Sequence record: PQ352352.2
DNA length: 64,000 bases
From: Escherichia phage vB_EcoM_PTE-Eco15
Strand: one strand, 5' to 3'
Position 1 is the stretch's first letter, and every line of letters starts with the position of its first letter. The position numbers and the translations under genes were made by a program. This document shows, piece by piece, positions 1,817-2,533 of the stretch. Below the pieces are notes generated by a model, which saw nothing but the letters and a program-made list of their open reading frames with translations, made no database searches and was not told the DNA's origin.

Positions 1817-1993
1817 TAAGGCCTATACTTAGGACTATTTATATTCAAATAACATGGGAACAAGCTGGACCTCATGATTCTATGAGGGATTCACGCCAAC
1901 CTGTAATAAGGTCGAGCCCAAGTGCGGTAATGGGTAAATACAGAAATGGACAATTCATGCGCCATGGAATGGCCCAAATTTAGAGAGAATAAA

Positions 1994-2533
1994 ATGAGAA
2001 CATTTTTAACTGGTCCTTATCTATCCCTGATGAATGCTTTTACACACCATTCTGATGCTAGAGTAGAAGAAATTTGTAAAAACGATTATATCCCGCCATT
2101 TGAAGAATTACTTAAACAGTACTGCACACTTCGACTAGATGGTGGACGTCAATCTGGTAAATCAATTGCTGTGACTAACTTTGCTGCTAATTGGTTGTAT
2201 GATGGCGGAACAGTTATTGTTCTTTCTAATACTTCAGCTTACGCTAAAATTTCTGCGGGCCACATTAAAAAGGAATTTTCTCGTTATTCTAGCGATGATA
2301 TACGTTTTCGTTTATTTACTGATTCTGTGCGCAGTTTTATCGGTAATAAAGGAAGCAAGTTCAGAGGTTTATCGCTTTCGCGAATTTTGTATATAATTGA
2401 TGAGCCTGTCAAATCTCCTGATATGGATAAGATTTATAGTGTCCATATTGACACTGTACACTGCTGCTGTAATATTAAATGTTGCATTGGTGGTATTACT
2501 CGTCCACAGTTTTTCGTAATCGGAATGCAATGA
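1994..2533 (+). CDS. Small P-loop protein with terminase-ATPase-like Walker A and B motifs and a Cys-rich tail
   Basis: Likely start is the ATG at 1994 behind gagaataaa; motifs LDGGRQSGKS and ILYIIDE; C-terminus HCCCNIKCC. Confidence 0.45.
   Translation: MRTFLTGPYLSLMNAFTHHSDARVEEICKNDYIPPFEELLKQYCTLRLDGGRQSGKSIAVTNFAANWLYDGGTVIVLSNTSAYAKISAGHIKKEFSRYSSDDIRFRLFTDSVRSFIGNKGSKFRGLSLSRILYIIDEPVKSPDMDKIYSVHIDTVHCCCNIKCCIGGITRPQFFVIGMQ

Follow-up and report, generated by a model that had tools for sequence, protein, structure and literature searches.

Comparison with related loci shows that positions 1855 to 1975 of the window (the 64,000-nucleotide stretch of the genome of Escherichia phage vB_EcoM_PTE-Eco15 that was analysed; PQ352352.2) specify a conserved structured RNA, predicted to consist of a 5' stem-loop (SL1), a 49-nt three-way junction and two hairpins that carry GGA motifs. 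The distribution of its copies shows the junction, as judged from sequence searches, to be an autonomous module found only in phages. The element is probably a conserved phage RNA module with a factor-binding junction, which doubles as the leader of the vs.8 gene in T4-like phages. Here we present the features of the element and of the adjoining vs.8 ATPase gene, together with the distribution of the RNA and the alternatives considered for its role.

Genomic locus and features

The window covers the early region of a T4-like phage with the gene order e, denV, ipIII, spacer, vs.8, vs.7, vs.6 (GrcA) and regB. The features of the locus and the predicted parts of the RNA are as follows.

1179 to 1207, + strand: match to a T4 early-type promoter (TTTACG-17-TATAAT with an upstream TG), ahead of ipIII
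1822 to 1833, + strand: small hairpin CCUA/UAGG directly after the ipIII stop codons (1814-1819), outside the conserved element
1856 to 1894, + strand: SL1, 5' stem-loop; GGGAA 1856-1860 pairs with UUCAC 1890-1894, with one G.A mismatch in this phage; internal loop CAAGCUGGA; apical hairpin CCUCAU 1870-1875 / AUGAGG 1882-1887
1891 to 1939, + strand: core of the three-way junction (P2-P3-P4), 49 nt, the stretch matched by covariance model R1
1895 to 1897 with 1933 to 1935, + strand: P2, GCC/GGU, followed by A1898; encloses hairpins P3 and P4
1899 to 1902 with 1909 to 1912, + strand: P3, ACCU/AGGU, loop GUAAUA
1913 to 1915, + strand: J3/4, CGA
1916 to 1918 with 1923 to 1925, + strand: P4, GCC/UGC
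1926 to 1932, + strand: J4/2, GGUAAUG
1946 to 1958, + strand: hairpin HP-a, AUG/CAU, with GGA 1948-1950 at the 5' edge of the loop; T4-like copies only
1961 to 1973, + strand: hairpin HP-b, GCCAU-GGA-AUGGC, with GGA 1966-1968; T4-like copies only
1983 to 1996, + strand: weak Shine-Dalgarno-like GAGAG and the vs.8 ATG (1994)

The promoter match is the likely source of a transcript that would carry ipIII, the RNA element and vs.8; a promoter is annotated at the equivalent position in phage Lutter, and no promoter-like or terminator-like site was found within 1817-1993. The small hairpin behind ipIII has a perfect stem, GGCCUA/UAGGCC, in locus L019. Among T4-like relatives the element keeps its place and the genes on its 5' side are reshuffled (denV, ipIII or another gene for an internal protein); endonuclease genes are inserted close by in some phages. 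Anti-defence genes abound around vs.8: vs.3 encodes the TadIV-1 sponge (PMC13243611), and L175 carries an Acb2/Tad1-family gene in the same neighbourhood.

Composition and structure of the RNA element

The initial annotation had described the spacer as unusually GC-rich, and the numbers agree: 1817-1993 has a GC content of 40.7% against 34.3% for the whole window (93rd percentile of 177-nt windows), and the part that holds the element, 1855-1975, reaches 48.8% (99.8th percentile). Folding energy was no better than chance when compared with shuffled sequence (z = -0.15 for 1817-2000, +0.19 for 1855-1976). The hairpin CCTCAT/ATGAGG pointed out at the same time is present (1870-1875 and 1882-1887), and it is significant because relatives keep the pairing and not because of its folding energy. 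The apical hairpin reads CCUUAU/AUAAGG in L148 and CACAU/AUGUG in Vequintavirus, and a U.G variant is found in L001, L132 and L147.

In an RNAalifold consensus of the type-A copies of SL1, the basal pair is A-U in eleven and G-C in one, and the apical pair is C-G in eleven and U-A in one. For SL1 of subtypes B and C the paired fraction is 92%; pair 14-61 is G-C in 14 copies, C-G in 7 and A-U in 1. SL1 abuts P2 directly on the 5' side; copies from other phage families also have a hairpin just 5' of P2, with a family-specific sequence (judged by eye, not counted).

Covariance model R1, which matches the junction core, detects 79 copies (63 distinct). Because these copies were gathered with sequence patterns derived from the core, the invariance of some positions is partly imposed. 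Against this phage R1 scored 68.5 bits (E = 3e-21), the sole real match in the 64 kb. Its covariation score was 0.220 versus 0.076 in shuffles, with none of 500 shuffles reaching the observed value and registers slid along the alignment giving 0.059 at most. P2 and P4 show many compensatory changes: P2 pair 6-55 occurs as CG (46 copies), GC (11) and AU (4), P2 pair 7-54 as CG (48), UA (9), GC (3), AU (1) and GU (1), and P4 pair 27-43 as CG (52), UA (5), GC (2) and AU (1). The third pair of P4 is mostly unpaired. P3 is invariant except for one change of A-U to G-C, and this near-invariance therefore says little for or against its pairing. The junction strands A, CGA and GGUAANG are near-invariant, as is the sequence of P3. 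The minimum-energy hairpin given by RNAfold, GCCC/GGGU, was rejected, its covariation being 0.050 versus 0.047 in shuffles, 156 of 500 of which equal or exceed it.

The element acts as RNA from the + strand, since G.U pairs are tolerated (15 GU at pair 5-56) and the matches lie on the tRNA strand in 21 of 21 tRNA-linked loci. Strong selection on it follows from L174, in which the central 33 nt are identical although the adjacent Vs.8 protein is only ~40% identical. What had been put forward as a structured spacer is a conserved, covarying and widely distributed RNA motif, well beyond the original guess.

The two 3' hairpins accompany the junction in T4-like phages. The GGA of HP-a is invariant in 44 of 44 distinct T4-like copies, and GCCANGGAAYGGCC of HP-b is kept in all T4-like copies, L039 and L165 having variants one base shorter. 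The two GGA motifs lie ~18 nt apart. HP-b ends ~20 nt before the vs.8 start codon in this phage and at a constant ~20-24 nt from the AUG in T4-like copies, and the Shine-Dalgarno sequences before vs.8 are weak in T4-like phages.

Coding potential of the region

The spacer had been described as free of open reading frames. A 33-aa ORF (1882-1983) does stand in the ORF list of the window; the region itself is nevertheless judged non-coding, as the frame is not conserved. That the element is translated, be it as this peptide or as the N-terminal 40 residues of a longer Vs.8, is a highly improbable reading. Apart from the existence of the ORF it can draw on one synonymous-looking change (AGU to AGC) and on the reference annotation of T4, where vs.8 has 219 aa, starts at an ATG inside the hairpin and has the element read as the N-terminus of Vs.8; in this phage the in-frame ATG 1946 would give a Vs.8 of 195 aa. 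Yet of the 83 distinct copies just 33 contain an ATG in that frame upstream of the core, a stop codon stands directly before the core in ten copies, and peptide lengths across copies range from 7 to ~70 codons. The frame of the conserved 3' hairpin also differs between subtypes A and B, and this difference, together with the scarcity of the upstream ATG, leads us to regard the element as non-coding. Its conservation is explained by compensatory base-pair changes, and a PHROGs search with the 33-aa peptide returned no match. The start of vs.8 is placed at ATG 1994 because homologues share the N-terminus M(R/K)TFLT; the annotated start of T4 vs.8 probably lies 40 codons too far upstream.

Distribution and genomic context

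In T4-like phages the element is found just upstream of vs.8, fused to the two GGA hairpins; in T4 itself it corresponds to complement 64820-64937 of NC_000866. Regarding the T4-like loci with a detected vs.8 homologue, vs.8 lies at most 100 nt downstream in all 50 of 50, or ~480 nt downstream with an inserted internal-protein gene; such a gene separates the element from vs.8 in six loci. A very distant vs.8 relative (P0051, L178) has no element upstream.

The same core occurs beyond the T4-like phages in Vequintavirus (JES2013), the Klebsiella phages Pylas and KpCHEMY26, ~150-kb myoviruses, and 70-kb and 47-kb phages, and copies were also found on metagenome contigs. These non-T4 copies lie in or adjoin tRNA operons. 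A terminator of its own follows the element in L033, in L125 it is part of an ncRNA operon, and some phages carry tandem copies. A search of the non-T4 loci with the vs.8 HMM gave no match, and no downstream protein gene shared outside the T4-like phages was found. ORF65 of JES2013 (142 aa, annotated as 'terminase large subunit', 2 kb from the element) was considered as a vs.8 homologue and rejected for lack of similarity.

Pattern scans of 185,579 bacterial and archaeal species genomes found no copy, and BLAST against 5,426 E. coli genomes gave no match. In the GenBank records that were checked, the copies are not marked by any RNA feature. Literature searches on vs.8, T4 small RNAs, ncRNAs of phage tRNA clusters, anti-defence RNAs and CsrA in T4 yielded no description of the element; the sole mention of vs.8 concerns a plasmid on which the region upstream of the gene serves as promoter.

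Comparison with known RNAs

A scan of 1500-2300 with Rfam 15 (4227 covariance models, E up to 10) yielded only two spurious snoRNA matches, both outside the element, and no match to CsrB or CsrC. At seven other loci with diverse copies (E up to 1) nothing was matched at the element, and the matches elsewhere were essentially to the tRNA clan plus a few weak ones. ARAGORN found no tRNA or tmRNA gene in the window, and at the other loci tRNA calls flank the element and never cover it.

The three-way-junction riboswitches (e.g., the purine riboswitch) and the hammerhead likewise combine a closing helix, two hairpins, a conserved junction and covarying helices, but their junction sequences differ, the element has no Rfam match and it has no common downstream gene outside the T4-like phages. 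The strand lengths of 1, 3 and 7 nt prompted a comparison with the hammerhead, which was rejected: CUGANGA/GAAA is absent from both strands, where the junction reads A, CGA, GGUAANG (reverse CNUUACC, UCG, U).

The T4 RNAs rnaC and rnaD (species 1 and 2) are also small structured phage RNAs with no assigned function, and they are co-transcribed with tRNAs, exactly the position that the element takes in non-T4 phages. They are, however, related to it neither in sequence nor in structure, and in T4 the element lies ~6 kb away, upstream of vs.8. A relation was rejected, as R1 found no match in the tRNA region of T4 (68000-75000, E up to 10). GOLLD and ROOL are likewise structured RNAs associated with phages, have no assigned function and are often encoded beside tRNA genes; they form multimers and measure 600-800 nt, whereas the element has about 50-120 nt and an unrelated sequence. 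Mimicry of 16S rRNA was considered on account of GUAACAAGGU (16S positions 1497-1506) and GCGGUAAU (527-534) and rejected, since shuffled cores align equally well: in local alignments with the E. coli rrn operon, the score of the core was equalled or exceeded by 18-96% of the shuffled cores.

Like CsrA-regulated leaders and the CsrB/RsmZ sponges, T4-like copies present GGA in hairpin loops upstream of a weak Shine-Dalgarno sequence. Subtype B reads AUACAUGGAUGA, which may be compared with the CsrA SELEX consensus RUACARGGAUGU. By their resemblance to the GGA-in-hairpin consensus, the GGA hairpins look like candidate CsrA sites. The element differs from CsrA-type RNAs in having only two such sites, which are invariant in T4-like copies and absent from non-T4 copies; the literature searched holds nothing that links CsrA to T4.

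The bacteriophage phi29 pRNA, a three-way-junction RNA that works with the gp16 packaging ATPase, offers a lead only, in that a junction RNA and a packaging-type ATPase adjoin each other here. No sequence similarity to pRNA was detected (Rfam), the element occurs without vs.8 in other phages and, to our knowledge, packaging in T4 needs no RNA.

The vs.8 ATPase

The features of the gene downstream of the element are as follows.

1994 to 2533, + strand: vs.8 homologue, a predicted 179-aa standalone P-loop (ASCE/RecA-like) ATPase
2138 to 2164, + strand: Walker A, DGGRQSGKS
between Walker A and Walker B, + strand: RG motif (R124 G125)
2384 to 2407, + strand: Walker B, ILYIIDEP
2459 to 2485, + strand: Cys-rich HCCCNIKCC, non-conserved

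The 179-aa ORF reported at the outset is present at 1994-2533, behind a AGAGAGAAUAAAAUG leader, and so are the two Walker motifs and HCCCNIKCC. The protein matches PHROG 1488 over residues 3-179 (E = 1e-78), with the synteny denV or an internal-protein gene, then vs.8, vs.7 and vs.6, and the homologue is annotated as vs.8 in T4, RB32 and PP01. The family members found have about 66-259 aa, most of them 160-185 aa. Over 18 full-length homologues, down to 40% identity, 36 columns are invariant. Walker A is invariant in the family except for its last residue (S or T); in Walker B, L132, I134, I135, E137 and P138 are invariant and D136 is nearly so. The predicted structure is one compact, confident alpha/beta domain (pLDDT 80.8). 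The cysteine cluster, which had been taken for a defining feature, is variable in the family and coincides with residues 158-168, the one part that the model predicts with low confidence.

Vs.8 appears to be a minimal ATPase related to the ATPase core of the terminase large subunit, on weak but consistent evidence. The terminase signature (RQxGKT/S, RG motif, Walker B hhhhDE) is present and alignable to T4 gp17: hhalign against gp17 residues 160-275 gave E = 0.0015 with Walker A, the RG motif and Walker B aligned, and the terminase profile phrog_2 matched with E = 3e-5. The terminase likeness proposed initially is upheld by these two scores but not by the Pfam model Terminase_6N (PF03237), which stayed below its cut-off (13.3 versus 22 bits, E = 0.063). 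Two RecA-like domains with motifs I-VI, as in an SF2 helicase, were not found, and SF2 RecA1 domains fit the Vs.8 fold as well as the terminase does. A PDB profile search, PADLOC and NCBIfam gave nothing significant for Vs.8. Compared with gp17, whose N-terminal subdomain I it resembles, the 179-aa Vs.8 lacks ATPase subdomain II and the RNase H-like nuclease domain, and it differs from terminases in being the product of an early gene with no known role in packaging.

It had been suggested that an unexpected second packaging ATPase, perhaps a decaying gene fragment, is encoded here; vs.8 is instead a standard, syntenic early gene of T4-like phages, full-length and with motifs that remain invariant down to ~40% identity. 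We think it quite unlikely that the ORF is a truncated, decaying packaging ATPase or a decoy for terminase-directed processes (e.g., immune sensors of the large terminase). The terminase-like motifs (Walker A of the form RQxGK[ST], RG, Walker B) and the neighbourhood rich in anti-defence genes would suit such a reading, but decay is excluded by the full-length homologues with their invariant columns and is at odds with a coherent family of ~160-185 aa with a compact, confident fold, while the decoy finds nothing in PADLOC or NCBIfam to speak for it.

Proposed role and alternative explanations

The junction most likely binds a conserved partner, because its helices are too short to be stable on their own and its unpaired nucleotides are the most conserved. 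This partner could be a protein of host or phage origin or a small ligand. In tRNA operons the tRNA-maturing nucleases would free the element as a small stable RNA; in T4-like phages the module would in addition form the leader of the vs.8 mRNA, where the two CsrA-site-like GGA hairpins and the weak Shine-Dalgarno sequence at fixed spacing may couple the element to the translation of vs.8. It is possible, if rather doubtful, that the junction represents a new class of phage RNA (aptamer, decoy or ribozyme) that is expressed with tRNAs by virulent phages of enterobacteria, from several families, has been wired to vs.8 by the T4-like phages and acts on a conserved host component as an RNA-based counter-defence or take-over factor. 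It might, for example, sequester an immune signalling nucleotide, a defence nuclease directed against tRNA or RNA, or a protein that binds RNA.

A leader that acts purely in cis would likewise agree with the strictly syntenic arrangement of element and vs.8 in T4-like phages. In that reading, which we consider unlikely, the element is a 5' leader or riboswitch of vs.8, with the junction as aptamer (for a metabolite or a protein, e.g., CsrA) and the hairpins and Shine-Dalgarno sequence as expression platform. It would account for an element that always stands 5' of vs.8 in T4-like phages even where Vs.8 is only ~40% identical, and for invariant GGA motifs and a last hairpin at ~20-24 nt from the AUG beside a weak Shine-Dalgarno sequence; some riboswitches, too, occur in tandem, and RNAalifold on type A offers an alternative pairing of GGUAAUGGGU with AUUCAUGCGCC. 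This alternative pairing is not kept in subtype B, however, no Rfam riboswitch is matched, an internal-protein gene intervenes in six loci, and outside the T4-like phages tRNA or ncRNA operons take the place of vs.8 or any common downstream gene.

A role as a small ribozyme that cleaves itself, or as a processing signal for a nuclease, by which polycistronic early mRNA or the transcripts of tRNA operons would be cut at this point, is improbable. Phage genomes frequently contain small ribozymes, and this frequency, the resemblance to them in topology (the three-way junction is compact, and its near-invariant strands have 1, 3 and 7 nt) and the position between genes and between tRNAs all count for such a role; set against them are the missing hammerhead core on both strands and the lack of any match to the twister, twister-sister, pistol, hatchet, HDV and hammerhead models of Rfam (E up to 10 in the window, up to 1 at the other loci). 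A function at the level of DNA, as a recombination hotspot, a homing-endonuclease site or a horizontally spread mobile cassette like the promoter/stem-loop cassettes in the hyperplastic regions of T4, is scarcely credible. A near-identical core of ~40 bp in unrelated phages, the shuffling of upstream genes around a fixed element and the endonuclease genes inserted nearby in some phages could be read in this way, but the covariation with G.U pairs is strand-specific, as expected of RNA, the orientation always follows transcription, and no promoter match lies inside the element.

Significance

T4 is among the best-studied genomes, and the element is unannotated there, hidden as the N-terminus of Vs.8; its core is better conserved than the Vs.8 protein beside it. 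The covariance model is ready for annotating hundreds of phage genomes, and the start of T4 vs.8 probably needs correction; with its 49 nt the core lends itself to direct biochemistry and structure determination. If the RNA acts together with Vs.8, an orphan ATPase that is conserved and akin to the packaging motor would thereby gain a function; vs.8 sits in a gene cluster that is now known for anti-defence proteins. A compact RNA that is common to unrelated virulent phages, absent from bacterial genomes and located in tRNA operons points to an unrecognised step of take-over or counter-defence at the level of RNA.

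Genomic setting

The window covers a Tequatrovirus (T4-like) early region and is 99.7% identical over 1200-3300 to Shigella phage ESh30; hundreds of T-even relatives match this region. The spacer containing the RNA element (approximately 1855-1975, + strand) is arranged with its neighbors as follows.

138-1816: 3' end of e (lysozyme), internal-protein gene, denV, internal-protein gene, ipIII (1238-1816)
1817-1993: spacer
1994-2533: 179-aa ORF, homologue of T4 vs.8
Downstream: vs.7, vs.6 (GrcA-like) and, farther on, regB

The gene upstream of the element varies among T4-like phages (denV, ipIII or other internal-protein genes). 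In T4 the order is e, ipIII, ipII, denV, and vs.8 is preceded by denV instead of ipIII; the internal-protein and denV genes are reshuffled between the window and T4, and the RNA remains joined to vs.8. A simple scan gave a T4 early-type promoter match at 1179-1207, upstream of ipIII, and nothing resembling a promoter or terminator in the spacer, which suggests that the element is most likely carried on the ipIII-vs.8 early transcript. A small hairpin at 1822-1833, right behind the double stop codon that ends ipIII (perfect GGCCUA/UAGGCC in the compared locus L019), was not scored as a terminator by the scan and may be a weak 3' stabilizer or terminator.

A sigma-70-like promoter match (TTGACA-16/17-TAATAT) lies at 2448-2476 within the 3' end of vs.8, where phage vB_EcoM_Lutter has an annotated promoter ahead of vs.7. 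The 3' half of vs.6 (3001-3225; glycyl-radical GrcA-like domain) reaches 47-49% GC, much higher than the phage average, which would fit acquisition from a host gene. The vs genes form an anti-defense neighborhood. T4 vs.3, which a 2026 report describes as TadIV-1, a sponge blocking type IV Thoeris (PMC13243611), has a homologue in the same cluster as vs.8 (3709-3987), and an Acb2/Tad1-family gene occurs in the corresponding cluster of related loci (e.g., L175, 2598-2873).

Structure of the RNA element

The initial annotation described the spacer as GC-rich, structured and without an ORF. Its GC content is indeed 40.7%, versus 34.3% for the window, with the enrichment focused in 1855-1975 (48.8%, 99.8th percentile), and the proposed CCTCAT/ATGAGG hairpin is present at 1870-1887; the absence of ORFs was inexact, since a 33-aa ORF runs from 1882 to 1983 and position 1946 has an in-frame ATG. 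Folding energy is indistinguishable from that of shuffled sequence (z = -0.15 and +0.19), so the claim of structure was untenable from the single sequence alone. Comparison of copies bears it out: judged by covariation, the spacer holds a conserved structured RNA.

The copies came from four pattern scans. IMG/VR was scanned twice with tight patterns of the core and a third time with a relaxed one, whose coding false positives were excluded; the fourth scan covered metagenome contigs. A covariance model of the core (R1) was built on 40 distinct copies (alignment A2). It gave a single match in the window (1891-1939, 68.5 bits, E = 3e-21; approximate E-value from a short-calibrated model) and 79 copies, 63 of them distinct, across 82 sources. 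The 49-nt core is a three-way junction.

1895-1897/1933-1935: P2, GCC/GGU
1898: junction A
1899-1902/1909-1912: P3, ACCU/AGGU, loop GUAAUA
1913-1915: J3/4, CGA
1916-1918/1923-1925: P4, GCC/UGC
1926-1932: J4/2, GGUAAUG

In the R1 alignment, pair counts were CG46/GC11/AU4 and CG48/UA9/GC3/AU1/GU1 in P2 and CG52/UA5/GC2/AU1 in P4. The covariation score was 0.220, versus 0.076 ± 0.009 in shuffles (0/500), and no slid register exceeded 0.059. P3 shows a single change (A-U to G-C) and is otherwise invariant; because the collecting patterns were derived from the core, the constancy of some positions was in part imposed. The GCCC/GGGU hairpin preferred by RNAfold in place of P2 and P4 lacks covariation and was rejected.

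A stem-loop (SL1) abuts the 5' side of P2 in every family looked at, as judged by eye from sequence outside the T4-like subtypes; the hairpin at this position in non-T4 families differs in sequence. In the window's subtype (A), SL1 is GGGAA...UUCCC around CCUCAU/AUGAGG, with one mismatch in the window (UUCAC) and GGGAG/CUCCC, CCUUAU/AUAAGG and U.G variants in relatives. Subtypes B and C have a larger stem-loop, 92% paired, in which one pair is GC14/CG7/AU1. The internal-loop sequence AACCUGGACCUC (1861-1872) is common to subtypes A and C (L035 and other type-C copies), the remainder of SL1 being different, and echoes the AACCUG at the start of the core. T4-like copies add two hairpins (1946-1958 and 1961-1973) with invariant GGA, which end about 20-24 nt upstream of the vs.8 AUG; the Shine-Dalgarno sequence is weak.

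Distribution and linkage

In a sensitive BLAST search the spacer, rather than vs.8, was the query part surviving at the greatest distance. Positions ~1896-2040 still match distant T4-like phages, and unrelated phages, e.g., Vequintavirus JES2013 and V18, carry the 40-nt core CCAACCTGTAATAAGGTCGAGCCCAAGTGCGGTAATGGGT at 93-97% identity in DNA without annotation. Further carriers include the 70-kb Klebsiella phages Pylas and KpCHEMY26, the ~150-kb myoviruses SF1-1, DE16, phiWec188/190 and PsgM04F, and the 47-kb phages CF-SP1, KlebP_265 and VLCpiS13c. No named carrier has an RNA feature at the matched stretch, which is mostly unannotated and in a few overlaps a 'hypothetical protein'. Two pattern scans of bacteria and archaea (one genome per species, 185,579 species) gave no copy, and BLAST against E. 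coli (5,426 genomes) gave no match. None of the variants matches an Rfam 15 family; rnaC and rnaD, the stable RNAs of T4, bear no relation to the element, and no account of it turned up in literature searches.

T4-like phages carry one copy of the element, apart from tandems in three loci (L036, L039 and L165). The tandem copies are of different subtypes, C then B, upstream of vs.8 (5092-5251, 9020-9180 and 362-522, respectively). In all 50 T4-like loci with a detected vs.8 homologue, vs.8 starts at most ~100 nt downstream of the element, or ~480 nt when separated from it by an inserted internal-protein gene. This linkage persists at a Vs.8 identity of only about 40-46%; in L174, Vs.8 is about 40% identical, yet 33 nt at the center of the RNA match the window exactly. 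In Lutter (L001, 3199-3830), a frameshift interrupts vs.8 (its two HMM pieces lie in separate frames; annotated CDS of only 133 aa) and the element carries G-to-U at the base of P4 (CGAUCC); this single case could be joint decay or sequencing error.

Neither vs.8 nor a common downstream gene was found at the non-T4 loci, where the element lies in or beside tRNA gene clusters or long ORF-free stretches, in one case (L033) directly followed by a strong intrinsic terminator. In 47-kb and 70-kb phages (L125, 7660-8120, minus strand; similarly L030 and L134), a promoter precedes ~450 nt without ORFs. This stretch, which looks like an unannotated ncRNA operon, contains the element and several other stem-loop modules (repeated UUUCCGUUGUG..., GGUAAGAGCAYUG...CAGUGCUCUU); tRNA-Arg and tRNA-Met come after it.

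The Vs.8 protein

Walker A, Walker B and a Cys-rich stretch are all present in the 179-aa ORF, as initially annotated. Vs.8 falls in PHROG 1488 (function unknown; E = 1e-78), and its family is small (a search of 1.84 billion representatives gave 50 clusters at E ≤ 0.001, most of them of 160-185 aa). The suggestion of a decaying fragment is ruled out by 36 invariant columns among 18 sequences down to 40% identity, including DGGRQSGK, R113, R124-G125 and, in Walker B, L132, I134, I135, E137 and P138. The Cys-rich stretch is no defining trait, being variable among homologues and, in the AlphaFold model (pLDDT 80.8, pTM 0.82), the one region of low confidence. Terminase is the only recurring sequence-level link: the proposed resemblance holds weakly but consistently, for phrog_2 (E = 3e-5) and, by hhalign, for gp17 residues 160-275 (E = 0.0015; Walker A, RG and Walker B aligned), but the Pfam Terminase_6N score is under threshold. 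PDB, PADLOC and NCBIfam searches added nothing. The conserved motifs and this recurring link argue that Vs.8 is a conserved standalone terminase-like ATPase core.

The T4 reference vs.8 (219 aa; NC_000866 complement 64253..64912; L003 4254-4913) starts at an ATG inside SL1, in a frame held open, in T4 only, by an 8-nt duplication (ttatagag). T4 Vs.8 probably begins at the conserved M(R/K)TFLT, 40 codons downstream.

Proposed function

A peptide-coding role is unlikely: in the frame annotated in T4, an ATG precedes the core in just 33 of 83 distinct copies, a stop codon immediately precedes it in ten, and the conserved 3' hairpin falls in different frames in different subtypes. A DNA site is likewise unlikely, given that G.U pairs are tolerated in the helices and that orientation always follows transcription (vs.8 strand in all T4-like loci; strand of the neighboring tRNA genes in 21/21 loci). 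The junction is compact, its unpaired nucleotides and P3 sequence are constrained more than the neighboring protein, and its helices are too short for stability alone. RNAs of such a kind normally work via their tertiary fold, by binding a protein or ligand or by catalysis. There is a slim chance that the element is a self-cleaving or processing one. A purely cis-acting vs.8 leader or riboswitch, as the linkage in T4-like phages might suggest, is a less likely alternative; in several phage families the module occurs in tRNA operons without a fixed neighbor gene, which favors an autonomous, probably trans-acting RNA.

For the RNA, as for Vs.8, we infer function. The tertiary fold of the element would bind a protein or ligand, or catalyze a reaction, and tRNA-maturing nucleases would release the element as an autonomous, probably trans-acting RNA. 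In T4-like phages it would double as the vs.8 leader, and the GGA hairpins of these copies, which resemble CsrA sites, may couple it to translation.
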